Shown: piece after piece, positions 6,380 through 62,173 of the stretch | Layout of the letters: each line of letters opens with the position of its first letter | How positions within the stretch are numbered: position 1 is the stretch's first letter | Assembly (NCBI GenBank): GCA_951406725.2 | Contig: OX597824.1 | Coordinates: 53,196,001 to 53,260,000, forward strand | Length of the DNA: 64,000 bases | Source: Octopus vulgaris | Lineage: Eukaryota | Direction: 5' to 3' | Position numbers and translations under genes: made by a program | Notes under the pieces: model-generated | Database searches by the model: none | The model's input: only the letters and a program-made list of their open reading frames with translations | What the model was told of the DNA's origin: nothing

Positions 6380-7431
6380 ATTATACGCAGCTAGAAAAAG
6401 ACCTCCTTTACTCTAGCGCCACATAAATACCAAACGCTGAATATTGCTTCACGTCAAACTTTCTTTACTCCTTCTTTTCACAACGATTCTGTCATTCGTC
6501 TAATATATCCATTGTTTCAATCTTACACTTATTCCCTCTTTCCCACACTGAGACTCACGCAACGACTGAGGTAATCTCTCTCCATCACCCTTGATTTTTT
6601 TCTGTTTCCCATCAACTTCAAGCAATTATATCATTTTTTTTGACAGCGACTGCAATATCATGCTTAGAGCACAATAGCTGAAGACGAATCATTCGTCTTG
6701 ACAGAAGTGTTAGTTTGAAAACCTATCTTATCAAAGTATTTCTCGTTTGTATACCATTTAGAGAAAAACAGGGCTTGAAGATCGAGACATCGAAACTAAC
6801 AGCAGCTGGCATAATAAATTAATACGATCTGCTTCACAAATAAAAATGTATGACTCTACAAATCCATGTCAAGTGCTAGATTATTGTTGATATGCTTAAT
6901 ATTTATTTATCAATCATGATACGATACAAGTACACGCATGATAGTTTATTTTATATGAGACTTCGCTAATAGACAAATGCTGGAAAAAAACTGTGATTTA
7001 AACCCACAGCATTCAGCTATGAAACATTCATAATTGGAATGAATAAATAAAGTTAAATATAAAGTATTTATGGAATTTTGATTTACTCTCAGGTGACTTT
7101 TGGCCAAACCTGTATATATTCAGTTATGGTAGATAAGTAAAGTCTCTTATCTACCATAAATGTTCTATAACTTATTTATACTTTATTTGTGCTCAATGTT
7201 ATGCAGTAAATATCCTAGAGTAATGTCAAATGCTTTGCTTGCCTATCTTCCATTTTTATCTATATTTATAGTATTTATAGACATATTCATACATGAATAT
7301 ATATATATATATATATAACTTACTTGAAAAAGATACGTTGCGTTCAATCATATAATAATATAAATAATACATATATGCATATATACATACATATATGTAC
7401 ATACTTACATCTATACGTATATACATATGCA

Positions 7432-7760
7432 TATGTGGGCACAGGACGTTACGGAACGTAGACAATAGAAAAAACGTAAACATGAGATACGAAATACGAA
7501 AACATGGAATATGAACTTTGTCTTGCAACAACGAAAGAAACAAATGGAAAAGAAAACAAGTAATATAACGGACGACACTTCATCAGTTGTCGGCTATTTT
7601 TCTAAACCCTATTAAGAAAAACACTTGTTTTCTTTTCCATTTGTTTCTTTCGTTGTTGCAAAAACAGTTCATATTCCATGTATTCGTATTTCGTATCTCA
7701 TGCTTTCGGTTTTTTATGTTGTTTATGTTCCGTGACATCCTGTGCCCACATATGCATATG
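7432..7760. repeat. Inverted pair of a dispersed repeat (family Y; another copy at ~38540-38760)
   Basis: gtgggcacagga...caacaacgaaagaaacaaatggaaaagaaaacaagt and its reverse complement at ~7622-7750; cttcatcagttgtcggct shared with 38668-38685. Confidence 0.8.
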
Positions 7761-7787
7761 TAAATACATATAGAAGTATGTACATAT

Positions 7788-8069
7788 AAGCAATAATAAA
7801 TCTTTGAACGAGGTATAAACAGTAACTGCACAACGATGTGAGGTATATTTGCCATCTCAATATGGCTAACCACTAAGGGTGGGTGTTACTGTAGCTTGTA
7901 GCCCCAGGAGAACATCTCCTCCAGCTGGCTATAGGCACACTTTCTGTGCCCTATCGGTATTTGCAAAGGGAGGTCATCCTTCCCTCGTCAACCTAAGTGA
8001 TACGCACGGACTGTAGTTTCTGGGTATTGACCCATCATCAGCGCACGACAATCACCGGTTTACGATGAA
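7788..8069 (-). mobile_element. Retrozyme-like HHR repeat, copy 1, part downstream of the Tx1 insertion (reconstructed unit 354 bp)
   Basis: 7788-7916 is directly repeated at 13655-13783 (~4 mismatches); contains an HHR; removing the Tx1 and one TSD gives a 354-bp period. Confidence 0.8.
7997..8055 (-). ncRNA. Type I hammerhead ribozyme (predicted GUC cleavage between 8009 and 8008)
   Basis: Minus: GTGAT TGT CGTGCG CTGATGA TGGGT caat ACCCA GAAA C TACA G TC | CGTGCG T ATCAC; full core, stem II 5 bp, stem I with GU pairs; covaries with the HHR at 39011-39071. Confidence 0.85.
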
Positions 8070-8409
8070 TTTATCTTTATTATGATCAAGTGATCTAACA
8101 TAGAATTGGGACATTACAGGACAAAACAATTACAAAAATGCTATGCGAGTTCGAATGAAATTATAAAAATTACAAAAATAAAATTTTACGTAACTTGAAC
8201 GAAAACTTGGCTTACTTTGCCTTGAAACGAAAACTTGGCTTACTTTTGCCTTTATCACGAGAACTTTTAGTGCGTATGTTTTCTTTTTTTATTATTATTA
8301 CTTTATTTTAAACAGTTATGTACAGTGAAAGGGGATGGGAGGTACCAGTTTCAATTTTGAACCCGGCAGCCTATAAGTCCCAGCAGCTGCTTTTTCCTTT
8401 CCTCGATGA

Positions 8410-11400
8410 TTAAGCTGGATTACTCTCACCCACCTTTCTCATCACATCCTTCCAACGTTCCATATACTCTTTCTGTGGCAGGCTCCTCTTCTCCAACCCC
8501 ATCTTGCTCTTCAGATGATATCCAAAGTATTTTAACAAACCGAGGCCAGAGATAAAGGACCCTTTCACTAGACCTTCCATTCTAGTTCTCCATACACACT
8601 CTTTCAATACTGCCACCGTACAGTAAAAACAAGCCTTACCTTCCTTTGAGAGTCCAGTTGGCGGTATCATCTTAATCATGGATCCAGCCGACAGCTGTAC
8701 ACGTCCCAGATGCGACAACACGTGTTCAACGTAACTTATCAAGCCTGACAGCTCCCGACATTGTACAAAAGCGTGTTGAACGGTTTCATCGTCCAACCCA
8801 CATCTTGGACACGTCGGTGGCACTGACATTCCGTGCCTGGATAACTTCTCGCGAACAGGTAATGCATTCCTATAGCACTGCCAGGTCAGGGATTTTGGGT
8901 AATTATCCAAATACCCCGACCTGAAAGTCTTCTTAAACAGGTTGGAAAGTTGATCCTCATCGAATCCCAGAGCCCTTCCTAGGACTTCGTCATTTTTTCC
9001 CTCTACCAGCCCTTTATAGAACACCGAGGTGGTATTCCCGCTGCCGGCCTTGCCCATCTTGTGGATCGGCCAGAGTGCCTGTCGGCACTCCTTCTGCCCT
9101 GAAGTCAGGTTACATCCTTTAATGAGACCGGGTGTAAATCCCTCCATAGAGGCCGGTCGCGGAAAGAATTCCTCTGCCAGCGAACTCCACACCTTATCAT
9201 CCTCTAGGTAACACCAGAGGTGTCTCAGCCTCAACGCATGCTTGCGCATCATTAGCCAAGGCATCCCCAGTCCACCCTTTAGCGGTTGCTGGCAACACAC
9301 GGAGCGTCTCACAAGAGGCTTTCCTCCTTTCCACAAAAAGCGGAAAAGGAGTCGTTCCAACTTGTTTAACCACGAATCGGGGCAAGGCACGACGGTCAGG
9401 CGGTAGGTGACGACAGAGGCTATAAACATCTGTGTCACCTCCGCCCTTCCTTTCAAGGAAAGATGCCTTCCGGACCACTTCCGTACTATGACATCCACCT
9501 TGCTCGTTACCTCGCTCCAATTCTTCTCCGTCTGGGAGTCTGGACCAAACCAGACTCCGAGGAATTTAACAGGACCATCCGTCCAGTGTCCAACAACACT
9601 GGATGGTATCGGCTTGTTCCTCCAGGTGCCGAGGCGCAAACCGATGGACTTGTCCCTGTTAACTTTTGCCCCTGCCACCGCTTCGTATCTATGGAGAGCA
9701 CCTGCTACCCGAGGTAGCTGTGTTCCGTTGGACACGATGCGGGTGACGTCATCCGCATAGGCAGAAACAGACTTACCGCATCCGATTTCATTAGGGTTGC
9801 CTCCCAGATTCTCTAGCTTCCGCAGCAATGGCTCAAGAGCCAAAACATACAGGAGCGGGGACAAGGGACACCCTTGACGAATTGAACGCTTGATCGAAAA
9901 CGGCTCCGTTAGGTAACCGTTTATCTGGACTGTGGACTTGATGCCGCTGTACATAGCTGAGATCCACCCGCAGAAGCCAGGGCCCAGCCCAGCCGCTTCG
10001 AGGACCGCCGCCAAGTACCGATGGTCTACCCTATCAAACGCTTTACTTTGGTCTAAATGGACCAATGCCCCTCCTTTGCCGTCTAATTTCCCGACCCTAT
10101 CTATAGTGTAGCGGAGAAGGTGAAGATTATCCTGGATCGACCTGCCTGGGATTGCACATGTCTGTGCCTTCACGACAAGTTTCTCCACGACAGCCGTCAG
10201 CCTTTTTGCTAACACCTTGGCCAAAATCTTAAACTCTACATTAAGTAGAGTTATGGGCCTATAATTACTAATACTGTCCCCCTTGCTCGGGTCTTTCTGG
10301 ACAAGCGTCACAACTCCCCGACTCACAGAGCTGGGAATCCTCCCATTCTATTGCCAGTTTGCATAGACGCTTGCCAGTATGTCCCCGAACAAGTCCGGCA
10401 TACAACAATAAAATTCATAGGGCAGACCATCCAACCCCAGCGACTTTTCCCCGGCGCACTCGGCCATAACCCCTCTTACCTCCGCGGGAGAGATCGATCC
10501 TTCACAGCACTCCGCCTCACCTGCCGAGAGCCGAGGCCCACCAGCTAGGAAGTCCTTTAAGGTCTCCCCACGCTCGAGCGGACCACCGCCCCCAAACAGC
10601 CGAGCGAAATGCTGGTGAAGGACCTTCTGCATCTCCTCCTGTCCATAGATCTTGCGGTCCTGCTCGTTAGTTAAGGACATAATACAGGACTTTTTGCCCT
10701 TCTGACTCTCCTCACGACGGGCCCATCCGGCAACGTTAATACCTTCTCGTTTTCCTGCACGTAACTTAGCTCTGACTCTGCACCCCTCATGCTTGGCGTT
10801 GAGGTGACGGTACAATACCGCTCTCGCTGCCAACACTCCGGATGCACAGCCAGATTCCATAGCCTCGTCTAAGTTCTTAACTAATTCGCTCTCTATTCTA
10901 GTCCTATCTAAACTTAGCTGCTTGCTAAATCTAATGGACTCCAAACGGATGGCTCTTTTGAGGTCGAGCCACCATCTATTATTAATGATGGTGTCACATA
11001 ATGCCCTCTGTACTAATTCCTTAATCCGGGTACGGAAAGCTTCACAAGTCAAAATAGACTTGTTCATTTTCCAGTACCCGGGACCTTGTCTATGGCATTT
11101 ATCAACCTGTACCTCACACGTCACAAGTTTGTGATCCGTGTAAGGCACAACAGAGAATTGTGGACAGCTAACACTATTCTTATCTCGTTCCTTAACAAAT
11201 ACTCTATCTATGTACGATCTGCATGAGCCGTCGTTATTACTCCACGTCCACTGTGGAACGTTCGGCTCATCCAGTCGAAAACGGTTTACTAGATTAAAGC
11301 TCGCCAGTAGAGCCTTGAGGCCAGGATTCCCCTTCCTATCGCTCGAGCCTACACCATCCACCCGCGCATCGAGAATGGTGTTGAAATCCCCTACCAAGAC

Positions 11401-11799
11401 TACCGTTTTGGACGTCACTAGAAAGTGCTCCAGTTCCCGAAAAAGACCGGTCTGCCCACGTCCATTAGGAGCGTAGACGGCCACCAACCTGAAGGACTGC
11501 TTACTCACGTGCGTCACATCTAGGACAACCAGCCTACCTTCTGGGTTCAGAAAGACAGTACTTACCTGTAAGTCCAAGTTCTTCCTGAAAAGAACTGCCA
11601 CGCCTGCACCTCCCTCCCGGCTAGGAGAAATAAATTTCTCGTAACCATTGAGAAGTGGTGAGAACGCTTGGGGTCCTTTCATCTTGGACTCGGTAACAAT
11701 AGCTACATCGATTCTATGTGAAATGAGGTCGTCCCAAAAACAAGCCTGTTCCCATTTCGATCCCATTCCACGCACATTTATACAACCTAACTTAATCAT
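8410..11799 (-). pseudogene. Tx1 ORF2 (APE endonuclease + RT + C-terminal CCHC), one in-frame stop at 10348-10350
   Basis: NVRG, VYAPN, LVGDFN, SYIDR, TDHK (APE); YRPITLLN, LDQSKAFD, QGCPLSP, AYADDV (RT); CPRC..ETVQHAFVQC; TAG here vs CAG in copy 2. Confidence 0.92.
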
Positions 11800-11822
11800 C
11801 GAAAAAAAAGAAAATTATTTAC

Positions 11823-13314
11823 TCACGGTTGCGAGAGGGAGCCTGACAGATCCCTTCTGCCTGTCTCCCCCCCCTCGCCGTTGCTGCTGGGCGTTTCACC
11901 GGCGTTGCCACCGGGCTCTGGGTTGGTGTGGCTGCCGGGCTGACGTATAATTTCCCAGTTGTCACCTCCTGGGTGACATCCTTAATGAAGCCGGCTTTTA
12001 CGTGGTCTTGTAAGTTTTTCCTTTCCATCCTTCTTCGCCGACCCTTGCATATCGCCACCCCGCTTCCTTCTCGGTCGCTTTGTAGCCCCTGATCTGCATA
12101 CTTGCTTGCACAAATTTTACTGCTCTCTCGTTCCTTGTGGTGTATGCTATAATTTTTTCATTGGGTTTAAACCCTTTTACAGTTGGTGGGTGGGGTTTGT
12201 TAAAGTGCTGGCCTATAAATGTAGTACCGCCGGGGTGGGATTGGAGAATATTTTTAATTTGTTCGTCTGCGTTGTTTTTTCTTTTGTTACGGGTGGGGAG
12301 TCAGGGGTGATGGATTTTTTCCTTTTGTTCGACACGTTCGTGAATTCCATCTCTTCTTGTATATTTGTTTTCGTTGTATTAATTTCCTCTTCCTTTCCTT
12401 TCTCATTTTGCATTTCGTTCCTGTCTTCCTCCTTTTTGGAGTTCGACCTGTTTTTTTTTACCTCCTTGCTTTCGCCAGTCGTTACTCTGTTCTCCACTTT
12501 GCTGCTTTCTGCGTTCTTCACAGCGTTTTTTTTTGGGGGGGGCATTGCCCGTATTATTTTTCTTTGTTCAAACGGAGCGAACGTGGCCCTTTTGCCCGCA
12601 CTTAAAACATCTGGGCCTGCGTCCTTCCACCGAAAGTCGTATGGAGTGCCCCTCCCCTACGAAGACTCTATCTGGTAGGCTTTCCAGCATCGCATTTTCC
12701 ACCTGGATAATCATCTCCAGCTGCTGGCCTCTCCAGTGTTTTGCTATTTTCCTCTTCATACTCAAAATTGTCAATTTTGATTCAACATTAAAAATGACCG
12801 CTGTTGCCGCCCACATCACGTCGTAGCCCCTTGGTATATCTTCTAGGGTCACCTTTGCTGTTCTGCACCCTAAATATAAGTGTAGCAGTATTATATTCTC
12901 GTTTTTCAACGTTTGCGTCGAAATTTGCCTTGCTTCTTCCGCCGTCTCAAAATGCGCCTCCACTGTAGCGCTTCTTGTACCTCGGTTGACATGACGAACT
13001 TTATTCCATATTGATGCCATACACTTTTCGACCATTTCGTTTTTTACGTCGGTCATTCGTTTTTCTTTTATATTGTACACTTTATAGGTGACCATTTTTT
13101 CCCTTATTGCCTGTATAGTCTCAGGGGGCGGTACCAATCGTGTTTCTTCACCTCTTTTTTGCACAAGCGGTCTGAACATGAATAGTCTTTCCATTGACAC
13201 CTCCATTTCTTTCACTTCGCCACCTACGGCGTCTGAAAAACTGGGTTTTGCCTGTGTTTCCTTTTGTTTAACAGTTGTTGTACCTTCTCCCATCTCGGGA
13301 AAGTCTAATTCCAT
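11823..13314 (-). pseudogene. Tx1 ORF1 (gag-like, zinc knuckle), frameshifted
   Basis: RPRCFKCGQKGHVRSV(C) knuckle; split over ORFs 12568-13326, 12213-12545 and 11819-12058; homologous to 42753-44097. Confidence 0.85.
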
Positions 13315-13565
13315 ATTAGACAACACAAACTTGTCACAAATGACAAGAGAATTTTTTTTTCAAAAATAACCTATACAGGTTAAGAGTTCACACAAAAAAA
13401 AACACAGAGATTTTCTACCCCGAAGGGCGAAAATTACTGGGTCAAAAACAGTTCAACAATTATATTACGTGTAACACAACAAAGTAGACAAACGGAAACG
13501 AACTCACACAACGATTTGCAGCAACAGAAAAATATTTGATATACTCCGAGGAAAAATTCAAAAAA

Positions 13566-13886
13566 CACCGGTTTACGATGAAAGGAGTCCCAATGCAAAT
13601 ACTTATATCCTTTTTCCAGTAACCTTTCGTCACTGATCTTGAAAAAGTGTATACAAGCAATAATAAATCTCTGAACGAGGTATAAACAGTAACTGCACGA
13701 CAATGTGAGGTATATTTGCCATCTAAATATGGCTAACCACTAAGGGTGGGTGTTACTGTAGCTTGTAGCCCCAGGAGAACATCCGATAGGGCACAAAAAC
13801 ACCCACCCTTAGTGGTTAGCCATATTGAGATGGCAAATATACCTCACATTGTCGTGCAGTTACTGTTTATACCTCGTTCAGAGATT

Positions 13887-13890
<4 letters not shown>
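13566..13890 (-). mobile_element. Retrozyme-like repeat copy 1, upstream part: rest of monomer, partial tandem copy and inverted arm
   Basis: 13655-13783 = 7788-7916; 13783-13890 is the reverse complement of 7945-7957 plus ~7795-7887; flanked by (TA)n. Confidence 0.8.
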
Positions 13891-38485: not shown

Positions 38486-38758
38486 TATATACATACATAT
38501 GTGTACATAATTACATATATATGTGTATACATAAGCATATATGGGTACAGACCGTGATAAAACGTAAACAAAAGGAGATACAAAATCAACATGAAATATG
38601 AACATTTTTTGCGAACAACGAAAGAAACAAATGGAAAACAAGATAAGTAACATAAAGAACGACCCTTCATCAGTTGTCGGCTGTTTTATCTACTCCACAT
38701 TTCGAGCAATTACGACAAGGTGGGTCTTCCAGAAACAGTTGCTCTCGCATAGCAAATA

Positions 38759-38806
<48 letters not shown>

Positions 38807-39082
38807 CAATGATAAATCTCAGAGCGAGTTATAAACAGTAGCGGTAACACAACGTGATGCATATATGCCATTTGAATATGGCTAACCCAAAAGGGTGGAT
38901 GCTACTGTAGTTTGTAGCCCCAGGAGGACACCTCCTCCCGCTGGCTATAGACACACTATCTGTGTCCTGTCAGTATTTGTGAAGGGGAGTCATCCTCCCC
39001 GTCTTCAACACATGATACACACGTACCCGAGTTTCAAGGTGTTTACCTTTCATCAGCGTGTGACAATCATGGTTGTCGACGA
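38807..39082 (-). mobile_element. Retrozyme-like HHR repeat, copy 2 (diverged subfamily; reconstructed unit 353 bp), part downstream of the Tx1
   Basis: 38807-38970 directly repeated at 44422-44585; homologous to 7788-8069 with compensatory changes. Confidence 0.8.
39011..39071 (-). ncRNA. Type I hammerhead ribozyme (predicted GUA cleavage between 39024 and 39023)
   Basis: Minus: CATGAT TGT CACACG CTGATGA AAGGT aaac ACCTT GAAA C TCGG G TA | CGTGTG T ATCATG; perfect stems I and II. Confidence 0.9.
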
Positions 39083-39339
39083 ATTTCTTTATTACGATCA
39101 TAAAATCATTACATAGAAGGACAATACAGGACATACATACAAAAAACAGTTAAGTGGTTCGATTAAAAATTTTCCATAATATATGGATTATTCCTTATAC
39201 AAAATTTGTATTTAAATGGTCCTTTGCATTGACTAATAGAGCATTACAACATTACATAGCTTGAGATCTTACCGATATATTTTAAACCCCGGCAACCTAT
39301 AAGGCCCCGCAGCTTTTCTTTCCTCTCCTCCATCCATAG

Positions 39340-42300
39340 TTAAGCTGGGTTTCTGACACCCACCTTTTTTGCCACTTCCTTCCATCTTTTTTCATACACA
39401 CCTCGTGGAAAGATCTTCTTTTCCAGCCCCATTTTGCTCTTCAGATGATATCTGAAGTAAGTGAGCAAGCCGGGGCCTGAGACAAAGGATCCTATTGCGA
39501 CTCCTTCCATTCTTGTACGCCACATGCATTCTTTTACTACTGCAACCGTGCAGTGAAAACATGCCTCACCTTCCTTCGAGAGTCCAGTTGGCGGTATCAT
39601 CTTAATCATAGACTCAGCCGACAGCTGTACTCGTCCCAGATGCGATAACACGTGTTCTGCGTAACTTATCAAGTCTGAAAACTTCCGACAGTGTACAAAA
39701 GCGTGCTGGACGGTTTCATCGTCCAACCCGCATCTTGGACACGTCGGTGGTACTGAAATTCCGTGCCGCGATAACTTCTCGCGAACAGGTAAAGCATTCC
39801 TATAACACTGCCAGGCCAGGGATCTTTGGAAGTTATCCAAATACCCCGTCCTGAAAGTCTTTTTAAACAGGTTGGTAAGCTGGTCTTCGTCAAACCTCAG
39901 AGCCCCTCCTAGGACGTCGTCGTTCTTTGCCTCTACCAGCCTGCTATAAAATACCGAGGTGGTATTTCCGCAGCCGGCCTTGCCCGCCTTGTGGATCAGC
40001 GTGAGTGCCTGTCGGCACTCCTTTTGCCATAAAGTCAGATTCCGTCTTTTGATGTGACCGGGTTTAAAATTCACTAAGGAAGCCGGTCTCGGGAAAAATT
40101 CCCCTGCCAGCGGACTCCACACCTTATCACCCTCCAGGTGGTGCCAGAGATGCTTCAGCCTCAACGCATGCCTGCGCATCATCAACCAAGGCATTCCTAA
40201 CCCACCCTTTAACGGTTCCTGGCAGCAAACGGAGCGCCTCACAAGTGGCTTTCCTCCCTTCCACAAAAAGCGGAAAAGGATTCGTTCCAACTTGCTAAGC
40301 CATGAATCGGGGCAAGGGACAGCGATCAGGCGGTAAGTGATTACAGATGCAATGAACATCTGTGCCACCTCCGCCCTTCCTTTCAAGGACAGAGACCTTC
40401 CGGAGCAGGTCCGTACTATGGCCTCCACCTTGTCCGTCACCTCACTCCAATTCCTCTCCGTTTGGGAGTCTGACCCAAACCAAACTCCTAGCAACTTAAC
40501 AGGACCATCCGTCCAGTGTCCCACGACACTGGACGATATCGACTTGCTCCTCCAGGTGCCGAGGCGCAAGCCAACCGACTTGTCCTTGTTAACCCTTGCT
40601 CCTGTCACCGCCTCGTATCCTCTGATAGCATCTTCTACACAAGGTAGCTGGGCCTCATTGGACACGATGAGGGTGACATCATCCGCATAAGCAGTAACCG
40701 TCCTCCCACCTCCGATCTCATCCGGGTTACTTCCCAGCCTCTCCAACTTTCGCAGCAATGGCTCGAGAGCCAACACGTACAAAAGTGGTGACAAGGGGCA
40801 CCCTTGACGAACTGAACATTCGATCGAAAACGGTTCCGTTAGGTAACCGTTTATCTGGACGGTGGACTTGATGCCGCTATACATAGCGGAGATCCACCCG
40901 CGAAATTCAGGGCCCAGTCCAGCCGCTTCGAGGACCGTCGCCAGATACTTATGGTCTACCCTATCGAACGCTTTACTTTGGTCTAAATGGACCATTACCC
41001 CGCCCTTGCCGGTTAATTTACCCACCCTATCTAAGGTATAGCGTATAAGGTGAAGATTGTCCTGGATCGACCTGCCTGGAATTGCACATGTCTGTGCTTT
41101 CCCTACAAGTTTCTCCACGACAATCGTCAACCTTTTTGCCAACACCTTGGCCAAAATCTTTAACTCTACATTAAGTAGAGTTATGGGCCTGTAATTACTA
41201 ATGTTATCCCCCTTGCTCGGGTCTTTCTGGATTAGCGTCACCACTCCCCGGCTTACAGAACTGGGAATTCTCCCATTCTGCTGCCAGTTCGCGTAGACGC
41301 CTGCCAATATTCCCCCGAACAAGTCCGGCATACTTTGGTAAAACTCGTAGGGCAGACCATCCAACCCCGGCGACTTCTCCCCGGCGCATCCGGCCAGTAT
41401 CCCCTCTATCTCCGCGGGAGTGATCGCTTCTTCACAGCACTCCACCTCACGCCCCGAGAGCCGCGGTCCGCCGGCTAGGAAGTCCTTTAAGGCCCTCCCC
41501 CGCTCCTGCGTCACACCACCCCCAAACGCGCGGGCGAAATGCTGGTGAAGAAACTTTTGCATCTCCTCCTGTCCATAGATCTTTTGTCCCTGTTCGTCAG
41601 TTAAAGACTTGATTGAAGCTTTGTTACCTCTCTGACTCTCCATTCGACGGGCCCATCCGGCAACGTTAATACCTTCTCGTTTCCCAGCGCGTAGCTTAGC
41701 TCTAACTCTGCAACCTTCGTGTTTGGAGTTAAGGTGACGGTACAATACCGTCCTTGCCTCCATCACTCCGGATACAGAGCCAGCTTCCATTGCCTCGTTT
41801 AGATTCTTAACTAAATCGTCCTCTATCCTAGACCTATCTAACCTTAGCTGATTGCTAAATCTAATGGACTCTGAACGAATGGCTCTTTTGAGGGAGTGCC
41901 ACCATCTATTGTTAATGATGGTGCCACACAATGCCCTCTGTACTAACACCTTAATCCGGGTACGGAAGTCTTCACAATTCAAAATAGACTTGTTCAGCTT
42001 CCAGTACCCGGGTCCCTGTCTATGGCACTTATCTAATTGCACCCTACAAGTCACAAATTTGTGATCCGTGTAAGGCACAATGTGAAACTGTGGACAACTA
42101 AACGTATCCTTATCTCTTTTCCTAACGAATATCCTATCTATATACGATCTGTGTGACCCGTCGTTGTTACTCCACGTCCACTGTGGAACGCTCGGCTCAT
42201 CCAGTCGATAACGGTCCACTAGATCAAAGCTCTCTAGTAGACCCTTGAGGCTAGGGTTCCCCTTCCTATTGGTTGAGCCAACACTGTCGACCCGCGCTTC

Positions 42301-42729
42301 AAGGACAGTGTTAAAGTCCCCTACTAAGACTACCGTTTTCGACATCGCTAAAAAGTGCTCCAGATTCCGAAAAAAACCCGCCTGTCTACACTCATTCGAA
42401 GCGTAGACAGCTACCAACCTGAAGGACTGTTTACTTACGTGGGTCACATCCAGAACGACCAGCCTGCCTTCTGGGTCCAGAAAGACAGTACTTACCTGCA
42501 AGTCCAAGCTCTTCCTGATAAGGACTGCCACGCCTCTTCCTCTTCCTCGGCTAGGAGAAATAAATTTCTCGAAACCATTTAGAAGAGGCGAGAACGCTTG
42601 GGCCCCGTTCATCTTGGACTCGGTTACAATAGCTACGTCCACTCCGTGTGTCGTGAGGTCGTTCAGGAAACAAATTTGTTTCCATTTCGACCCCATTCCA
42701 CGCACATTCACACAACCCAGCTTTGCCAT
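39340..42729 (-). CDS. Tx1 ORF2: APE endonuclease-reverse transcriptase-CCHC, uninterrupted
   Basis: Open 1144-codon frame (39340-42774; first Met aligned with copy 1 at 42729); NVRG/GDFN/YIDR/TDH and KAFD/QGCPLSP/YADD motifs. Confidence 0.92.
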   Translation of the reverse strand: MAKLGCVNVRGMGSKWKQICFLNDLTTHGVDVAIVTESKMNGAQAFSPLLNGFEKFISPSRGRGRGVAVLIRKSLDLQVSTVFLDPEGRLVVLDVTHVSKQSFRLVAVYASNECRQAGFFRNLEHFLAMSKTVVLVGDFNTVLEARVDSVGSTNRKGNPSLKGLLESFDLVDRYRLDEPSVPQWTWSNNDGSHRSYIDRIFVRKRDKDTFSCPQFHIVPYTDHKFVTCRVQLDKCHRQGPGYWKLNKSILNCEDFRTRIKVLVQRALCGTIINNRWWHSLKRAIRSESIRFSNQLRLDRSRIEDDLVKNLNEAMEAGSVSGVMEARTVLYRHLNSKHEGCRVRAKLRAGKREGINVAGWARRMESQRGNKASIKSLTDEQGQKIYGQEEMQKFLHQHFARAFGGGVTQERGRALKDFLAGGPRLSGREVECCEEAITPAEIEGILAGCAGEKSPGLDGLPYEFYQSMPDLFGGILAGVYANWQQNGRIPSSVSRGVVTLIQKDPSKGDNISNYRPITLLNVELKILAKVLAKRLTIVVEKLVGKAQTCAIPGRSIQDNLHLIRYTLDRVGKLTGKGGVMVHLDQSKAFDRVDHKYLATVLEAAGLGPEFRGWISAMYSGIKSTVQINGYLTEPFSIECSVRQGCPLSPLLYVLALEPLLRKLERLGSNPDEIGGGRTVTAYADDVTLIVSNEAQLPCVEDAIRGYEAVTGARVNKDKSVGLRLGTWRSKSISSSVVGHWTDGPVKLLGVWFGSDSQTERNWSEVTDKVEAIVRTCSGRSLSLKGRAEVAQMFIASVITYRLIAVPCPDSWLSKLERILFRFLWKGGKPLVRRSVCCQEPLKGGLGMPWLMMRRHALRLKHLWHHLEGDKVWSPLAGEFFPRPASLVNFKPGHIKRRNLTLWQKECRQALTLIHKAGKAGCGNTTSVFYSRLVEAKNDDVLGGALRFDEDQLTNLFKKTFRTGYLDNFQRSLAWQCYRNALPVREKLSRHGISVPPTCPRCGLDDETVQHAFVHCRKFSDLISYAEHVLSHLGRVQLSAESMIKMIPPTGLSKEGEACFHCTVAVVKECMWRTRMEGVAIGSFVSGPGLLTYFRYHLKSKMGLEKKIFPRGVYEKRWKEVAKKVGVRNPA

Positions 42730-42752
42730 TGTCGGAGAGAGAAAAAATAAAC

Positions 42753-44097
42753 TTACGGTTGGGACAGGGAGCATGACAGTTTAAATCTGCCTGCTTCCCC
42801 TTCTTCCTCCCTTGTGGTCATAGCTGCAGGGGTTATAATAAGTTTGCCCTCCAGTATTTCATTCGTTACATCTCTGATAAGATTATTCTTTAAATGTTCT
42901 TGTAGTGTTTTTTCCTTCCACTCGTCTTCCTTTATTTTTGCAAAGCGAGTGGTTGATTTTGTGTCTGTAGACTTACTGAATAGTTTAAATTTTGAAAATT
43001 TGAAATACTTGTACACCCTATTGTTCTTCTCGTCAAATGCTATAATCTTTTCATTTTTTTTTATCAATTTTTTCAAATCTTGTTTTATGGGGAGGGGTTT
43101 GGCGAACTGTGTTCCAATGAATAAAGTGCCGTGGGGGTAGGGCTGGGGAATTTGTTTTGTATGTATCTCTGCGGTGTTTGCTGATTTTTTCTTTGTTTGG
43201 GGAGGGGAGTCCAGGGTGTTATCTTTTTTCTTTTGTGTGTCACCTGTGTATATTCCATCTGTTCATTTTCATCTTCCGTTTCGGTTCCTTTCCTTGTCGC
43301 AGTCTTGGGTTCTTTTTCCGCCTTTTCTTTTTCAGTGTTTGAAGCACTTTGAGGAGGGGCTTCGTTGATTTTCTTTTTTTTTATGCAGTTTGAGCGGACG
43401 TGACCCTTTTCGCCACATTTGAAGCACCTAGGTCTGCGCCCCTCCACTGACACTCTCATTGAAGTTCCCTCCTCATTAAATACCCTATCGGGTAAGTTTT
43501 CTAGTATCTTATTTTCTGCTTGAACGAGGAGTTCTAGCGCTTGTCCTTTCCAGTGCACCTCCTCTTTCCTTCTCATCTGCAGAATTGAAACTACATCATA
43601 CCCTCTTGGTATATCCTCTACATGTAGTTTGGCTGTTCTTTTTCCCATATACGAAGGTAGCAACATGATATCCTCAGTTTTCAAGGTCATTGATGACACC
43701 TCTCTTGCCACATCAGCCGAGTCGAAATGTGCTTCAACGGTAGCGCTGCAAGCACCTCGAACAACGTGGCGAATTTTGTTCCACACCGGCGACAAGCACT
43801 TTTCTACTATCTCGTTCTTGACATCCATTATTTTTTTTCTTTGTTGCTATAAACTTTGTATACAACTGTCTTTGCCTGTATTTCCTGTACCTTCGCTTGC
43901 GGCGGTACCAGTTTAATTTCATTGCCTTCCGTTTTTACCAAGTTCCGGTATTCGAATAACTGTTCAATCTTGAATTCTACATCCGTTACGGTTCCGCCCA
44001 CTGCGGCCGAAAAAGACTGTTTTTTGACTTCGGTATCCTTTTGTTCACCTTTTCCCATCACGGGAAAGTCACTCCTCGACGCCAAGTCGAACTCCAT
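42753..44097 (-). pseudogene. Tx1 ORF1 (zinc knuckle), frameshifted
   Basis: RPRCFKCGEKGHVRSNC; split into ORFs 43828-44097, 43085-43828 and 42753-43076, with at least one shift at a homopolymer run. Confidence 0.85.
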
Positions 44098-44324
44098 TTC
44101 TCAAATTATGAGAGCAAATGTTTCAAAAAAATTACCTCGAAGGTAATGACAATGTTTAAACACAGAATTTTCAGCCCCGTAGGGCGAAAATTACTGTTAC
44201 ACAACGGACAACTGTTCAATTCACGAGTAACACAAACAACGACGAACAAAAAATACGAACTCACTCAACAAAAAGGCAGCAAAATTCTCAAAACGCAGAT
44301 GAAAGAGGGGTCCCTAGACGAATA

Positions 44325-44753
44325 ACAATCATGGTTGTCGACGAGAATTCAGATTCCTTCACAAATACATATACTTTTTCCAGTGTCGATATGACACTGA
44401 TATTGAAAAAGTGAAATCAAGCAATGATAAATCTCAGAGCGAGTTATAAACAGTAGCGGTAACACAACGTGATGCATATATGCCATTTGAATATGGCTAA
44501 CCCAAAAGGGTGGATGCTACTGTAGTTTGTAGCCCCAGGAGGACACCTCCTCCCGCTGGCTATAGACACACTATCTGTGTCCTGTGTGTATCATGTGTTG
44601 AAGACGGGGAGGATGACGCCCCTTCACAAATACTGACAGGACACAGATAGTGTGTCTATAGCCAGCGGGAGGAGGTGTCCTCCTGGGGCTACAAACTACA
44701 GTAGCATCCACCCTTTTGGGTTAGCCATATTCAAATGGCATATATGCATCACG

Positions 44754-44754
<1 letters not shown>
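44325..44754 (-). mobile_element. Retrozyme-like repeat copy 2, upstream part with partial tandem copy and 171-bp inverted arm
   Basis: 44422-44585 = 38807-38970; 44584-44754 = reverse complement of 38852-39022; (TA)n flank. Confidence 0.85.
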
Positions 44755-45149: not shown

Positions 45150-45223
45150 AGGCATATGGCCTAGTGGTTAAGAGCGCGGGCTACTAGCCCCAGGATTCCG
45201 ACTTCGATTCCGGGCAGTGGCCG

Positions 45224-45225
<2 letters not shown>
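45150..45225 (+). mobile_element. tRNA-like SINE head followed by (AAT)n
   Basis: tggcctagtggttaagagcgcgggc (A box) ... cttcgattccggg (B box). Confidence 0.5.
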
Positions 45226-45280
<55 letters not shown>

Positions 45281-45281
<1 letters not shown>

Positions 45282-48200
45282 TCCTATAACATTCCTTCCT
45301 GATTTTCTCTTTCATGCTTGCATGCTGAATACCAGAGCCTTCATTTATCCCTAAATATTTGTATGTTTGTTCTTGCTCAAGCTCTCTTATGACTGTGTCA
45401 ACATCTAACACGACTGAATTTGTGGTCTTCACTTTCCCTTTCTGGAAAGTGGCCTTGGCACACTTCTCAAGTCCAAACTCCATCCCGATGTCATCGCTGA
45501 ATGCTTTCACGGTGCGTAATTGGCCTTCAAGTTCATTATTGTCTTTACCATAAAGTTTTAAGTCATCCATATAAAATAGATGGCTTATTTTTTTATTGGC
45601 AATTTTATACCCATACCCTGTTCTGTTTAATTCACTTGTAAGGGGTATTAGGGCTATGCAGAATATTAAAGGTGAAAGTGAGTCACCTTGAAAAATTCCA
45701 CAGTTGATGTTTATATTTTCTGAGGCAAGTACTCCATTAGAGTGGTATAATTGGAGATTCGTATTCCACAACGACATATTGTGCTTCAGGAAGTTTGAAA
45801 TCACAGGGGAAATTTTGAAGATGTCCAGCGATCTCAAGATCCATGGATGCGGTATACTGTCGAAGGCCTTTTTATAGTCAATCCATGCGGTGCTGAGATT
45901 TCTGCGCTTGTTGTGACAGTTCTCAAGGATCATACGATTGATTAGCAGTTGATCTTTGCATCCGTAAGAGCCTCGGCGGCACCCTTTTTGTTCAATGGGG
46001 AAAATATCGTTCTTCTCCATGAATGCATATGTTTTCTCCGCCAGGATAGATGTTAGGATTTTATACGTGGTGGATAGACAGGTTATAGGCCGATAGTTTT
46101 TTGGAAGGTTGGTTTCGTTATTCTTTGGGAGTAGGTAAGTAATGCCACTTGCTAACCATTCAGGTGTTTTCTTTGGGTCTCTCATAATTCCATTGAGCAG
46201 CTGAACTAGCTTACCGTGTGCGCACGGGAGCGATGCGAGCCAGAAATTCGGCACCCTATCTTTACCGGGGGATTACCAATTATGGGCCTTCGTGAGTGCC
46301 TTTCTTAGGTCTGCTATTGTGATGTCTTCCCATGCTTGTAAATTTTGGTAGGATCCTTCAGTTTGTATAATCCAGTCTGCATTTATGTTGTACGTCTTCT
46401 TGTCACTCCAAATCCTTTTCAAAAAGTTTTGAACTTCTTCCATGGGAGGGGGGTCTTTAACGGTTACTTTCTCCTTCCCTATTTCTCTGTAGAATTTTTT
46501 GGCATTGGATGTGAACAGCTTATTTTGCTTGTAAAACTTGTTTCGCTTCTCAAATCTTCGTATTCTTTGGGCTTTTGCTTGGACTTTTTGTTTCAGCGTT
46601 TCTTTTATTGATATCAGTTCTTCTCTTGGTGAGGATCCAAATTTTCTCTTCATCTTTCTTCCTGTTCTGGATCTTACATCATTTCCACATATTAGTTCAT
46701 TTAATATTGATATTTCCCCTCTCATAAATTCAATCTCTGTTTCAATTTTACTTCTCCAGGTTTGATTTCTTCCCAGGTTTTGTTTTCTTTGTTTTTTCGG
46801 GGGCATACAGCTGGTTTCAATTGCCCTAGCAGAAGCGTAAATAATTTCATTTAACTCAGTAAAATCAGGTTTTAATTCTCGTATTATTTCATTTGTTACA
46901 TAGTTGCCAATTTGGATTTGTTTTTTATTTTGGTTTGTATTTGAGAGTTTATGAAGCGGTTCTCTATCATTCATACTTGTATGTCTTACAACTTCAAGCG
47001 TATTCAGGATTTTCTGCCTCATTTCTGCCATAGACTCTCTGTGTTCTTCAGCAAATGCGAGATCTTCAGTTACTGTTGTTTTTTCGTTTTCCTGGCTATC
47101 TTTAACTGGTACAATAGAATTTCTTGTATCTTCAGGCCTTTGCGTACTTTGGTCAGATGGCAGTCTTTCAATTAAGCCTCGTGGCGGGCTATACTGTTCA
47201 TCTGATTCTTCATTTCCTTTGTGTCTTATATTTATGTCATTTTCTGTTGCGTGCTTGATCGCGCTTATTTCACTGTCTGTGAGTCTGTTATTTCTAAAGG
47301 AAGGAATGTTATAGGAGAGTTCGTGCAGTCCTGAAATCTGAACTAAATGCACGTAACAAGGTGTTAGCTATAAATTCCTTAGCAGTTCCAGTTGTTACTT
47401 ATAGCTACAATGTGTTGAACTGGAATATGAGTGAAGTAAAGAATATAGATAGAAAAATACGCAAGCTGCTGGGTTGTAATAGGATGCACCACCCAAAGGC
47501 AGACGTAGATCGCCTTTACCTTCCCAGAGCCCAAGGAGGTCGAGGCCTGATCCAATTTGAACTAGCTTACAAAACAACCACAATTGGACTGGCCAAATAT
47601 CTCGAAATATCGAATGACTGGATGCTAAAGCTCGTGGAAAATCACGAGAGACGAAAGAAGCTTCATTCTATCATCAAGGAAAGCAAAAAATTTGCTATTG
47701 ATCTCGTGCAGGATACCCAAACTGAACAACCCGAGGGAAGTACGGCAACTATTGTTGCAAAGAAGGTGAAAATGATGGCAATGAAAAAAGCGCACGAGCA
47801 ATTGGCTGATAGGTGGGAAGAGAAACCTCTGCACGGCAAATATGTGACCCGCAGCAAACAAGCTGATGTTGACCAGAAGCAAACCCATCAGTGGCTGCGG
47901 AGCTCAGGGCTAAAAGCAGAGAGCGAAGGTTTCATCCTGGCTGCTCAAGACCAAAGCCTATTAACCCGGAACTACCAGGCCAATGTGATGAACAATGGAG
48001 CAGACCCAAAATGCCGATTCTGCAACGACATGATTGAAACAGTGGACCACCTAATCTCTGGATGTAAAGTATTAGCACCAGTGGAGTATAAATTAAGACA
48101 TGACAGAGTTGGCCAATATCTCCACTGGCTAATAAGTCGGCATTACAATATCAAAACTGCCGACAAGTGGTATAATCACCACCCTGAGGCTGTAACTGAA

Positions 48201-48756
48201 GGAGAAAATGTAACCATTCTGTGGGACTTTCCAGTACATACAGACCGAACCACCAAGGCCAATAAACCAGATATTGTTGTGAAAGACCAAAACAATAAAG
48301 TTTGCTTATTGATCGGCATGAGCATCCCCTGTGATCATAATATCTCAGCGAAAGAGTTTGACAAGCTCAGAAAATATAAAGACCTACTCATTGAAATTGA
48401 GAAAATGTGGCATCTCAAGGCGGTTACAATACCAGTGATCGTAGGAGCACTAGGAATGATCAAGAAGGGAGCCGAAAATTATATGAGAATGATCCCTGGC
48501 TTACCATCCCTGCAAGAAGTGCAAACAATTGTCTTAACTGGTACATCACACGTATTGAGAAGAGCATTGTCGATGTGAGAACTGTTGCTGCTCATGTATT
48601 TTAATTTAACTTTAAAAAAAAAAAATTAAAAAAAAATGAACGAACTACTGAGTTTGGCTTAATGGCCTACCAATATACACTATGAGTTTCTTTGCCCTAG
48701 GAGTCGGGAAGACACTCGGCAAGAAATGGAAGAAAATTTGAAAGAAGAAAAAAAAA

Positions 48757-60980: not shown

Positions 60981-61944
60981 TTAATCAATATAGGGTGGCA
61001 AAAAATTCAGCAGAAATTATTTGCCACCAGCGGCCTAGTGGGAAAAAAGTAAATAGTCAGAGACTATTAATAAATTCAACAGCAAAATTAAGGAACGGCC
61101 ATAATAGGCCGTTCAACCCACTAGAAATAGCAGCCAAGGCTTCAACCGCAAAACAATATTAATTCCGTAAACCAGGAGAAAATTTTAAAAAACATTTACC
61201 CTGTAATACTTTATACAATGCATCGTTTCGTCTATTTTTTAATGACAAATCAACCTGATTAAATTAAATCAAGCTAATCTTCCATAGGCCAATAGATTCA
61301 TCAGTAAAGTAAGCCAGACGAGACAGATATTTTCACGAGGCAGCACCACTACTGTCTCGGCTATATCTGACCTAAAATTTTCAAATCATCGTACTCGCGC
61401 CAAATTTATCGGCAGCAAATATAAGCTGCCGATTCCATTTCGGAATTAAACAGAAAATTCCTAATTAATCAATATAGGGTGGCAAAAAATTCAGCAGAAA
61501 TTATTTGCCACCAGCGGCCTAGTGGGAAAAAAGTAAATAGTCAGAGACTATTAATAAATTCAACAGCAAAATTAAGGAACGGCCATAATAGGCCGTTCAA
61601 CCCACTAGAAATAGCAGCCAAGGCTTCAACCGCAAAACAATATTAATTCCGTAAACCAGGAGAAAATTTTAAAAAACATTTACCCTGTAATACTTTATAC
61701 AATGCATCGTTTCGTCTATTTTTTAATGACAAATCAACCTGATTAAATTAAATCAAGCTAATCTTCCATAGGCCAATAGATTCATCAGTAAAGTAAGCCA
61801 GACGAGACAGATATTTTCACGAGGCAGCACCACTACTGTCTCGGCTATATCTGACCTAAAATTTTCAAATCATCGTACTCGCGCCAAATTTATCGGCAGC
61901 AAATATAAGCTGCCGATTCCATTTCGGAATTAAACAGAAAATTC
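60981..61944 (-). mobile_element. Tandem dimer of a 484-bp retrozyme-like unit, each monomer with a type I HHR (61207-61311, 61691-61795)
   Basis: 60981-61464 repeated at 61465-61944; minus: TACTTTA CTGATGA aTCTATT..AATAGAc GAAACGAT GC ATTGTA | TAAAGTA. Confidence 0.85.
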
Positions 61945-62132
61945 ATAATTTCCTTCATAAATTCATAATTTCCTTCTCCATTACACTTTTTATAATATTT
62001 TTGATAAGGTTCGTTTTTTCAAGAACCGAAACATGTAAAATTCATAAGAAAATTAAAATTTATCTAATATAGTGGCGTTTTCAAACTTCTTTTTTACAAA
62101 TATATACCCACTCGTATACGATCTACTCTTAT

Positions 62133-62170
<38 letters not shown>

Positions 62171-62173
<3 letters not shown>

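Follow-up and report, generated by a model that had tools for sequence, protein, structure and literature searches.

Two LINE-bearing cassettes in the window

The window analysed here, a stretch of 64,000 nucleotides from Octopus vulgaris (contig OX597824.1, positions 53,196,001 to 53,260,000), contains two cassettes in which a LINE lies inside a hammerhead-ribozyme (HHR) repeat unit. Features of both are on the minus strand unless stated otherwise. In cassette 1, the body of the HHR unit (7788-8052; retrozyme family A, subfamily A1) adjoins a TA-rich tract at its 3' end. Its type I hammerhead (7997-8056) possesses CUGAUGA at 8041-8035 and a GUC triplet, with the predicted cut at 8009/8008, +58 from the predicted start. 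The 3' copy of a 17-bp target site duplication (TSD; 8053-8069) spans -3 to +14 of this start (+1 = 8066) and is followed by a LINE of 5496 bp, T1 (8070-13565), which has AATAAA near its 3' end and is without a poly(A) tail. T1 ORF2 (8410-11799), encoding APE, RT and zinc finger, is interrupted by one in-frame stop; the 5' part of ORF1 occupies 12568-13359 and the frame breaks further along. Upstream of the 5' TSD copy (13566-13582; predicted +1 = 13579) lies the promoter half of the unit (13583-13654), containing a T5 run (13642-13646), a TATA-like stretch near -30 and a PSE-like ATCAGTG (13631-13637). This last motif is found 58 nt upstream of the predicted +1, and the U1 and U2 genes of the genome possess the same motif at the same distance. 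A second, 5'-truncated unit copy (13655-13783), a partial tandem 96% identical to 7784-7916, precedes a segment (13798-13890, plus strand) in which the 3' part of the unit recurs in inverted orientation, followed by (TA)n, in the manner of a Penelope-like 5' inversion.

Cassette 2 is built alike. Its HHR unit body (38807-39062; subfamily A2) is 78% identical to the cassette 1 unit, with CUGAUGA at 39056-39050 and GUA as the cleavage triplet. A 20-bp TSD (3' copy 39063-39082, predicted +1 = 39080; 5' copy 44325-44344, predicted +1 = 44342) encloses the 5242-bp LINE T2 (39083-44324), in which ORF2 (39340-42729) is open over 1129 aa and ORF1 (43085-44100) extends over two frames. The promoter half of unit A2 (44345-44421) contains ATCAGTG (44395-44401) 59 nt upstream of the predicted +1. 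Further unit A2 copies fill 44422-44753, one partial and direct (to ~44591) and one inverted (44584-44753), followed by (TA)n. Partial direct and inverted unit copies on the 5' side and a (TA)n terminus are thus features of both cassettes, on which an earlier note on this DNA was silent.

That note had described perfect TSDs around each element, and the duplications proved exact, at 17 and 20 bp, with no further extension. Removal of the LINEs leaves units of 354 bp (cassette 1) and 353 bp (cassette 2), again as claimed. The type I HHR reported for both units was recovered by a scan of both strands with a descriptor (CUGAUGA, 5-bp stem II, GAAA, short stem III, GUC or GUA), which returned exactly two motifs in the window, at 8041 and 39056 on the minus strand. 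Stems I and II were present in folds of the two HHRs (z -1.2 and -3.0). Rfam gave no HHR match for the window or for either unit at gathering score or at E ≤ 1.

The two LINEs had also been called clearly diverged. The difference is real, but T1 and T2 share 83% nucleotide identity over ORF2 and 78% amino acid identity over its first 483 residues, both possess ORF1 and an ORF2 with APE-RT-zinc finger, and on these comparisons they are two subfamilies of one family. PF03372, PF00078 and PF13966 were detected in T2 ORF2, an architecture of the L1/Tx1 group, and the best solved relative of ORF2 was human L1 ORF2p (E 5e-64; R2, 4e-25). T2 ORF1 contains a CCHC zinc knuckle (PF00098, 22.1 bits; cut-off 20.8), which is a Tx1-clade feature of ORF1. 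We assign the family to the L1/Tx1 type, with its Tx1 placement within the group predicted from features; homolog, atlas and cluster look-ups returned no labelled Tx1 reference. A metagenome scan yielded 80 loci, mostly at 24-33% identity and none with an HHR by the descriptor, and thus no cross-phylum evidence.

Host units and insertion sites across the genome

The host units, at 354 and 353 bp, fit the size range of non-LTR retrozymes (150-450 bp), occur as tandem copies, contain a type I HHR and have no ORF. Between subfamilies the HHR core is constant while the stems vary with pairing retained, although the set for one comparison had been filtered for pairing. The partial tandems, the inverted 5' ends and the (TA)n sites are in line with a Penelope-like partner. 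The retrozymes, of which the genome has thousands of copies, would be non-autonomous repeats of Penelope-like kind. A frame flanking one off-target LINE copy (L081) is not called a Penelope ORF, because it matched no Pfam family above cut-off.

Of 78 LINE 3' ends examined genome-wide, 61 joined an HHR repeat, 4 joined U2 at +1, 6 were in tandem and 7 lay elsewhere; full 5' ends were read for 19 of 39 further T2 copies. By Kojima's rule, target specificity is assigned when more than 20% of flanks are of one type (PMC4494074), a share well exceeded by the HHR units. A retrozyme flank is therefore typical of this LINE family, as the earlier note had supposed, and a prevalence of unrelated flanks was not found. 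The U2 targets were identified by Rfam, whose match begins at model position 1 directly after the LINE end. The site preference claimed for retrozymes stands, but the target is broader than a single retrozyme: the LINE joins four HHR families (A, B, C and D) in addition to U2 and U1, and all but family C have a promoter-like motif at a fixed distance in common.

The motif ATCAGT[GC] was observed 57-59 nt before +1 in 12/12 U1 genes and 59 nt before +1 in 5/5 U2 genes. The same motif occurs 57-60 nt before the family-A site in 35 of 49 cases (chance, 0.0012 per 10-nt window), 57-58 nt before the family-B site in 5 of 19 units and in filled copies too, and 59 nt before the family-D site. Family C, to which 2 LINE ends belong, has a TATA-like stretch and no ATCAGT[GC] within 100 nt in 23/23 units. 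The fixed distance is therefore seen in five of six target families (A, B, D, U2 and U1), C excepted, and the targets also have 3-4 nt in common at the site. A PSE is positioned ~60 bp before +1 (PMC4494074). It is likely from position and sharing that the motif is a PSE and the insertion site a transcription start.

The predicted U1 insertion was found at a single locus, where a LINE 3' end directly precedes U1 +1, in register with the other targets. No LINE sequence was detected 5-6 kb or 3-4 kb upstream of this 3' junction; a LINE 5' end was located behind a U1 promoter without its gene, with the 5' junction ~12 nt before +1, and no TSD was found. Because ~170 nt separate the HHR from the insertion site in family C, recognition of the ribozyme itself is improbable. 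Given the equal spacing of ATCAGT[GC] in U1, U2 and HHR families A, B and D, together with the U1 insertion found as predicted, the LINE probably targets the start of transcription at snRNA-type promoters and not the ribozyme. At U6 loci the motif was present in 0/12; since most U6 hits look like pseudogenes and four belong to one variant array, this absence does not discriminate between Pol II and Pol III. The 5' end of the LINE contains T runs, which would speak against Pol III read-through. In the full-length copies inserted at U2, a 14-nt leader begins precisely where +1 is predicted for one family-A subfamily. No retrozyme leader is present in two full-length T2 copies located off target, and the LINE may therefore have a promoter of its own.

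We put at roughly 0.7 the probability that the LINE inserts by target-primed reverse transcription (TPRT) at the start of snRNA-type promoters, with retrozymes as its main hosts. A different account, possible but somewhat doubtful, requires sequence and RNA homing without a protein tether: the APE would prefer a short motif (pyrimidines then ATC), read-through RNA containing the old target would pair with the new one, and the constant spacing from the PSE-like motif would result merely from the short sequence that start sites have in common. Targets indeed begin ATCG, GTCG, GCCG or ATCT, and family C is reached without the promoter motif. T2 subfamilies track host subfamilies (rho 0.69 overall), which favours guidance by RNA homology, and TSD copies often differ, the halves of one copy (L327/L118) deriving from different host subfamilies. 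However, the common motif comprises only 4-7 nt and is far too frequent in 2.8 Gb to yield 71/78, U1 starts ATAC, and families A, B, C and D and U2 have all been reached, although outside the HHR core blastn shows no significant similarity among them.

Independence of the insertions

Among 18 T1 copies, mean identity was 97.0%, whereas that of their host units was 80.7% (Spearman -0.05), and T1 and T2 were both found in one and the same unit subfamily. The signature of TPRT is present, with TSDs of 16-21 bp and 5'-truncated copies; such copies occur with a TSD at the target site in families A, B and D (L024, L089 and L231). Since 97%-alike LINEs sit in 81%-alike units and truncated copies have TSDs at the site, most insertions are independent, which bears out the argument against a simple old duplication that the earlier note had drawn from the differing TSDs of the two cassettes. 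Some filled units were later recopied whole as composites, and the number of independent insertions is therefore lower than the raw counts suggest.

Could such recopying account for the pattern as a whole, one or a few old insertions having been amplified as retrozyme-LINE composites by Penelope-type machinery? This is real for some copies: L072 and L082, 48 Mb apart, are 93% identical with one internal deletion in common; head-to-head or inverted composites occur (L074/L077 at 99%, L232 and L320); and at least nine truncated copies lack both a TSD and the upstream promoter half. As the main cause it is refuted and very improbable, given the mismatch between LINE and flank divergences, the truncated copies with TSDs, the U2 and U1 targets and the tandem insertions at one site. 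Furthermore, the nearest relatives of the cassette 1 unit are empty units, with up to 98% identity; units filled by T1 reach no more than 96% and mostly stay at or below 92%.

Still less probable is random insertion followed by biased survival, whereby transcription and persistence are restricted to copies located behind a promoter. A borrowed promoter would favour such masters, but dead 5'-truncated copies of 0.6-2.2 kb are found at the same position with TSDs, and random insertion would place only ~1e-5 of copies at target sites, a first look at families A-C having given ~8,000 candidates in a genome of 2.8 Gb.

Units also exist without the LINE, in keeping with the earlier note. Empty sites made up 22 of 29 in one sample and 97 among the first 100 listed of 525, LINE-free tandem arrays show a spacing of 352-353 bp, and empty-site joints were seen in 4/4 public runs, all contigs with none on record as RNA. 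Although unit sequence flanks each LINE on both sides in the window, the idea that the LINE itself owns the HHR unit as a terminal repeat is refuted, and virtually without probability, because empties far outnumber filled units, arrays and empty-site joints are LINE-free, and the LINE also occurs in U2, U1 and off-target sites without the unit.

Proposed mechanism and comparison with known elements

Under insertion at snRNA-type promoter starts, this LINE of the L1/Tx1 type would use TPRT at the transcription start, with hammerhead retrozymes, each unit bearing an internal promoter, as main hosts and U2 and U1 struck at the matching position. A bottom-strand nick 0-3 nt before +1 and a TSD of 16-20 bp would leave the LINE in sense, just behind an intact promoter and before a regenerated +1 and an intact ribozyme. 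Filled units would sometimes be recopied whole by the retrozyme's own machinery. The LINE is rather likely to be transcribed from the borrowed promoter, and its read-through RNA might perhaps be ended by the HHR ~60 nt past the LINE. Positioning of the endonuclease by promoter-bound proteins (SNAPc or the initiation complex), and not by sequence alone, is a proposition at a little under even odds.

Position-specific insertion relative to a small-RNA promoter is known from Ty3, which uses TFIIIC/TFIIIB at Pol III genes. R2 inserts into 28S rDNA, is co-transcribed from the host promoter and is released as RNA by a ribozyme; this 5' ribozyme, of HDV-like type, is encoded by R2 itself, as is an RLE endonuclease. 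The octopus LINE would resemble R2 in host-promoter co-transcription and use of a ribozyme, which here is part of the host element and is situated on the 3' side of the LINE. APE-type LINE endonucleases are thought too unselective to account for specificity, and snRNA-promoter position as a rule would, if true, amount to a targeting principle new to LINEs of this type. We tentatively propose, with slightly less than an even chance of being right, that this is the first known retrotransposon steered by snRNA promoter machinery (SNAPc/PSE) to the +1 of any U1/U2-type promoter, retrozymes being safe harbours that supply a promoter and a ribozyme-cut 3' end in a three-tier parasitism of Penelope-like element, retrozyme and LINE. 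No ribozyme retroelement was found as a LINE target in the searchable open literature. Because T2 ORF2 is open, its enzyme is assayable, and site-specific gene insertion is a field in which a LINE landing behind a small-RNA promoter is of interest.

As a model for the tethering step, TRE5-A of Dictyostelium inserts ~50 bp upstream of Pol III genes through TFIIIC/TFIIIB (PMC3159450), and is likewise positioned relative to a small-RNA promoter; the octopus LINE is found at the +1 of U1/U2-type promoters, with tethering proposed. Target-specific Tx1-clade LINEs include Tx1L in Tx1D, Tx1-Mar in Mariner-N4_AMi, Kibi/Koshi and others in LTR elements, Harbinger, satellites, U5 and 5S (PMC4494074). 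These share with the octopus LINE an APE-RT with TSDs, a fixed site in a repeat or RNA gene, tandem insertions and possible flank transcription. The available portion of that source ties each family to one sequence, whereas the octopus lineage spans several dissimilar sequences with a promoter motif; it names no HHR or retrozyme target, the 'Sat' and U5 targets of its Fig. 3 and supplement lying outside the comparison. Keno (Tx1 clade, with an APE like the octopus LINE) and Utopia (RLE) also target U2 genes, inserting 37 nt inside U2 (PMC4640811 and PMC6136364). In contrast, the octopus LINE inserts at U2 +1 (TSD -3 to +14) with the full U2 downstream and U2 as a minor target, and none of its U2-joined ends lay at the Keno position.

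Non-LTR retrozymes are described as tandem units of 170-400 nt with a type I HHR and a Penelope-like origin (available parts of PMC7229834 and bioRxiv 10.64898/2026.07.22.740005), and the octopus units share these traits. Neither a LINE parasite nor a PSE is described in those parts, whereas the octopus units possess a PSE-like motif in three retrozyme families of this mollusc. An snRNA-type Pol II promoter has been reported for newt satellite 2 (Coats 1994, as cited in PMC2220036). The presence of a U1/U2-type promoter motif inside the units of mollusc retrozymes bears on how animal retrozymes are transcribed.

The window cassettes and their host repeat

An earlier note described two LINEs of one family in the window (C11:53196001-53260000), T1 (cassette 1, 7788..13890) and T2 (cassette 2, 38807..44754), each flanked by a target-site duplication (TSD) within a hammerhead-ribozyme (HHR) repeat, or retrozyme. 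Both TSDs proved to be exact (8053-8069/13566-13582 and 39063-39082/44325-44344), and removal of the LINEs left units, termed A1 and A2, of 354 and 353 bp as claimed. A descriptor scan of the window returned exactly two type I hammerheads, one per cassette and on the LINE strand, again in agreement. An Rfam search matched neither; their putative identity is based on a canonical core together with stems whose sequence varies between subfamilies while pairing is kept. On the minus strand, each cassette comprises an inverted unit piece, a partial unit, the promoter half (the part upstream of the insertion site), TSD, LINE, TSD, the HHR with the unit body and a TA-rich tract. T1 and T2 share 83% identity in ORF2. 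In T2, ORF2 is open (1129 aa) and encodes APE, RT and a zinc finger, and ORF1 possesses a CCHC knuckle. Among named homologs of ORF2, the closest comes from Argonauta hians (63%). The family likely belongs to the Tx1 clade, as against L1.

The host repeat also occurs without a LINE. Among the 29 closest relatives of A1, 22 were empty, with both halves joined through one target copy, six were truncated and one held a T2-type LINE. The A2-site motif gave 525 exact matches, and a LINE occupies 3 of the first 100 listed; LINE-free arrays with 352-353-bp spacing occur among these matches, and contigs from four of four public runs, which carry four organism labels, join directly across the LINE position. 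Empty units, which the earlier note had proposed to seek, are commoner than filled ones both in the A1 relatives and in the first 100 A2-site matches. Since the unit exists empty, in arrays and across public-run contigs, it is an independent repeat. It shows the features expected of non-LTR retrozymes and Penelope-like elements (PMC7229834, PMC11167929 and bioRxiv 10.64898/2026.07.22.740005), namely its unit size, an HHR, AT-rich sites and copies arranged both in tandem and inverted.

In each retrozyme unit, a T4-T5 run is conserved shortly ahead of the PSE-like motif considered below (window 13631-13646 and 44395-44410; copies L074, L071 and L210 elsewhere). Inserted copies end at this run (family B) or 10-15 nt before it (family A), and it may mark an RNA 3' end or the start of reverse transcription. 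Beside the unit 3' end, both cassettes hold a related palindromic repeat (7429-7755 and 38498-38692; 71-87% alike), probably a common MITE-like repeat. Directly beyond cassette 2, a second non-LTR element is present as fragments in opposed orientations (45184-48578), which include RVT_1 and a C-terminal part with a zinc finger and a motif that we take to be RLE-like. The intervals 60981-61950, 62068-62817 and 63269-63907 hold two open frames longer than 200 aa, for which Pfam gave no match, and a 486-bp tandem duplication (99.8%).

Insertion sites across the genome

The 2.8 Gb genome was searched three times with LINE 3' ends, and the best 40, 40 and 44 of about 900 candidates each were scored. 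Flanks were read for 40/40, 30/40 and 8/9 new candidates, giving 78 ends that include the window's two and at least four non-independent pairs; sampling of the best-scoring candidates under-represents older copies. Family A, which comprises the window's unit together with subfamilies 72-97% alike, accounted for 46 ends, family B for 12, family C for two and family D for one, so that most copies carry a retrozyme flank. A further four join the first base of U2 snRNA (identified by Rfam), six join another family member's 5' end across TSD-like sequence and seven lie elsewhere. An HHR motif is present in each of families B, C and D, with a degenerate core in the single D copy; blastn found no significant similarity to A outside the HHR core, and B may, by eye, be a distant relative of A. 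From the other side, 19 full-length T2 5' ends chosen without regard to flank comprised 16 with the promoter half upstream, one with an inverted unit piece and two off target, the latter with 13-bp TSDs.

In the U2 gene array (C3:20.79-20.84 Mb; L076, L080, L097, L027), the LINE sits at +1, the predicted transcription start, in several genes; one of them holds two LINEs in tandem, and an intact empty gene adjoins. Among off-target 3' flanks of diverged copies (L229, L093, L230, L234), two begin TTYATC, as usual targets do; L093, the one scanned with Rfam, gave no match. Truncated T1 copy L081 (flank C10:101157888-101158688) is bordered 5' by an inverted unit piece and 3' by a long frame that resembles a Penelope RT C-terminus by eye, with nothing above cut-off in Pfam.

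Insertion at U1 +1 was predicted beforehand, and a tight pattern then located one such case (none in the control). It shares the -3 register and has LINE sequence 85-88% identical upstream. A TSD could not be shown at this locus. At a U1 promoter located 53 kb upstream, U1 itself is missing; in its place stand a LINE 5' end and the start of ORF1, with the junction about 12 nt before +1. A third LINE subfamily, whose 5' end differs, lies behind a U1 promoter (L338, C18:48998240-48998640) and in tandem with T1 (3' flanks of L006, L026 and L029).

Some LINE-retrozyme composites were evidently copied whole, as indicated by an internal deletion common to two distant copies, head-to-head composite pairs and at least nine truncated copies that lack the TSD and the upstream half. 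Against such hitchhiking as the general route, 18 of 19 T1 copies in family A showed a mean identity of 97.0% over the last kilobase and 80.7% over the 200 nt of unit behind it (Spearman -0.05), and 70 of 95 T1 pairs at ≥97% LINE identity have units less than 85% alike. The site also holds 5'-truncated LINE copies with TSDs in families A, B and D, and the same unit subfamily hosts either T1 or T2. For 27 T2 copies (LINE 96.5%, unit 82.2%), the correlation was 0.69 overall, and 0.12 and -0.33 within the two groups; LINE subfamilies thus favour host subfamilies without copy-by-copy co-inheritance. The LINE-in-retrozyme arrangement is real, recurs across the genome and is richer than the earlier note claimed, with targets that extend to families A-D, U2 and U1. 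We put the probability that this is a target-specific LINE family with a new target class at roughly 0.9.

A putative promoter motif common to most targets

At the site itself, all targets have only 3-4 nt in common. Upstream, the PSE-like motif ATCAGT[GC], with a background rate of 0.0012 per 10-nt window, lies 57-59 nt before +1 in 12/12 U1 genes and 59 nt before it at 5/5 U2 sites, which represent two promoter types. In family A it precedes the ATCG by 57-60 nt in 35/49 sites, the remainder being mostly truncated. It stands at 59 nt in family D and at 57-58 nt in 5/19 family-B units; seven of these 19 have the exact motif, and most of the remainder are truncated, hold a LINE or show a variant motif. 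Of 42 5' junctions (23 picked for showing both halves, 19 unselected), 39 could be parsed and 37 had the motif at 57-60 nt with one change allowed, a count that within family A is not independent evidence. According to PMC4494074, the PSE is a core element situated about 60 bp upstream. An snRNA-type Pol II promoter is reportedly used by the HHR repeat newt satellite 2 (as cited in PMC2220036).

Family C weakens a strict PSE rule: the motif is absent in 23/23 units, which have a TATA-like stretch. Its HHR lies about 170 nt downstream of the site, so closeness to the ribozyme is not required for insertion. We consider it probable that insertion follows a promoter-position rule. The HHR repeats of family C (L155-L178), which are abundant at 1383 first-look candidates, have palindromic ends, (TA)n sites and a stem II with a long loop. 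A variant U6-like tandem array (L151-L154, C1:139.42 Mb) has an octamer near -78 and TATA near -30, and lacks ATCAGTG.

Precedents and a possible mechanism

Targets described for the Tx1 clade are DNA transposons, LTR elements, microsatellites, satellites, U2, U5 and 5S (PMC4494074), and a 'Sat' target listed there might be an HHR repeat. The site of Keno and Utopia lies 37 nt within U2, whereas the octopus LINE inserts at U2 +1. Searches of the open literature turned up no paper describing a LINE with retrozymes or snRNA start sites as its target; Repbase, Dfam or subscription journals may already record the family and its target. The main text of the 2026 retrozyme preprint (bioRxiv 10.64898/2026.07.22.740005) does not contain the terms Tx1, snRNA, promoter or nested. 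In an Octopus vulgaris repeat annotation (PMC13282606), 13 L1-Tx1 families are listed as active, and its accessible portion does not mention ribozyme, retrozyme or snRNA.

Most likely, the LINE would nick 0-3 nt before +1, duplicate 16-20 bp and land in sense behind an intact promoter. In every full-length U2-inserted copy, the U2 TSD is followed by a 14-nt leader that corresponds, apart from one change, to +1..+14 of a family-A subfamily; the two off-target T2 copies have none. On the simplest reading, the RNA would have begun at the family-A +1 and run into the LINE through its T runs, and such read-through points to Pol II and to a move from retrozyme to U2. The leader probably reflects one event. 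Transcripts that run past the LINE 3' end would be cleaved by the HHR some 60 nt further on; alternatively, an AATAAA near the LINE end could serve.

Recognition might involve tethering to SNAPc or the initiation complex, or a short sequence preference with RNA pairing; the two are compatible. TRE5-A, which tethers to TFIIIC/IIIB (PMC3159450), would by analogy provide a model for the former. Tethering, to which we give slightly less than even odds, would be new if true. TSD copies differ from each other in L327/L118, L070, L075, L318, L319, L323, L325 and L326, and in one such case the two host halves derive from different subfamilies; a donor-derived flank, gene conversion and later mutation are candidate causes. 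Together with the tracking of host by LINE subfamilies, these mismatched TSD halves favour some role of RNA homology.
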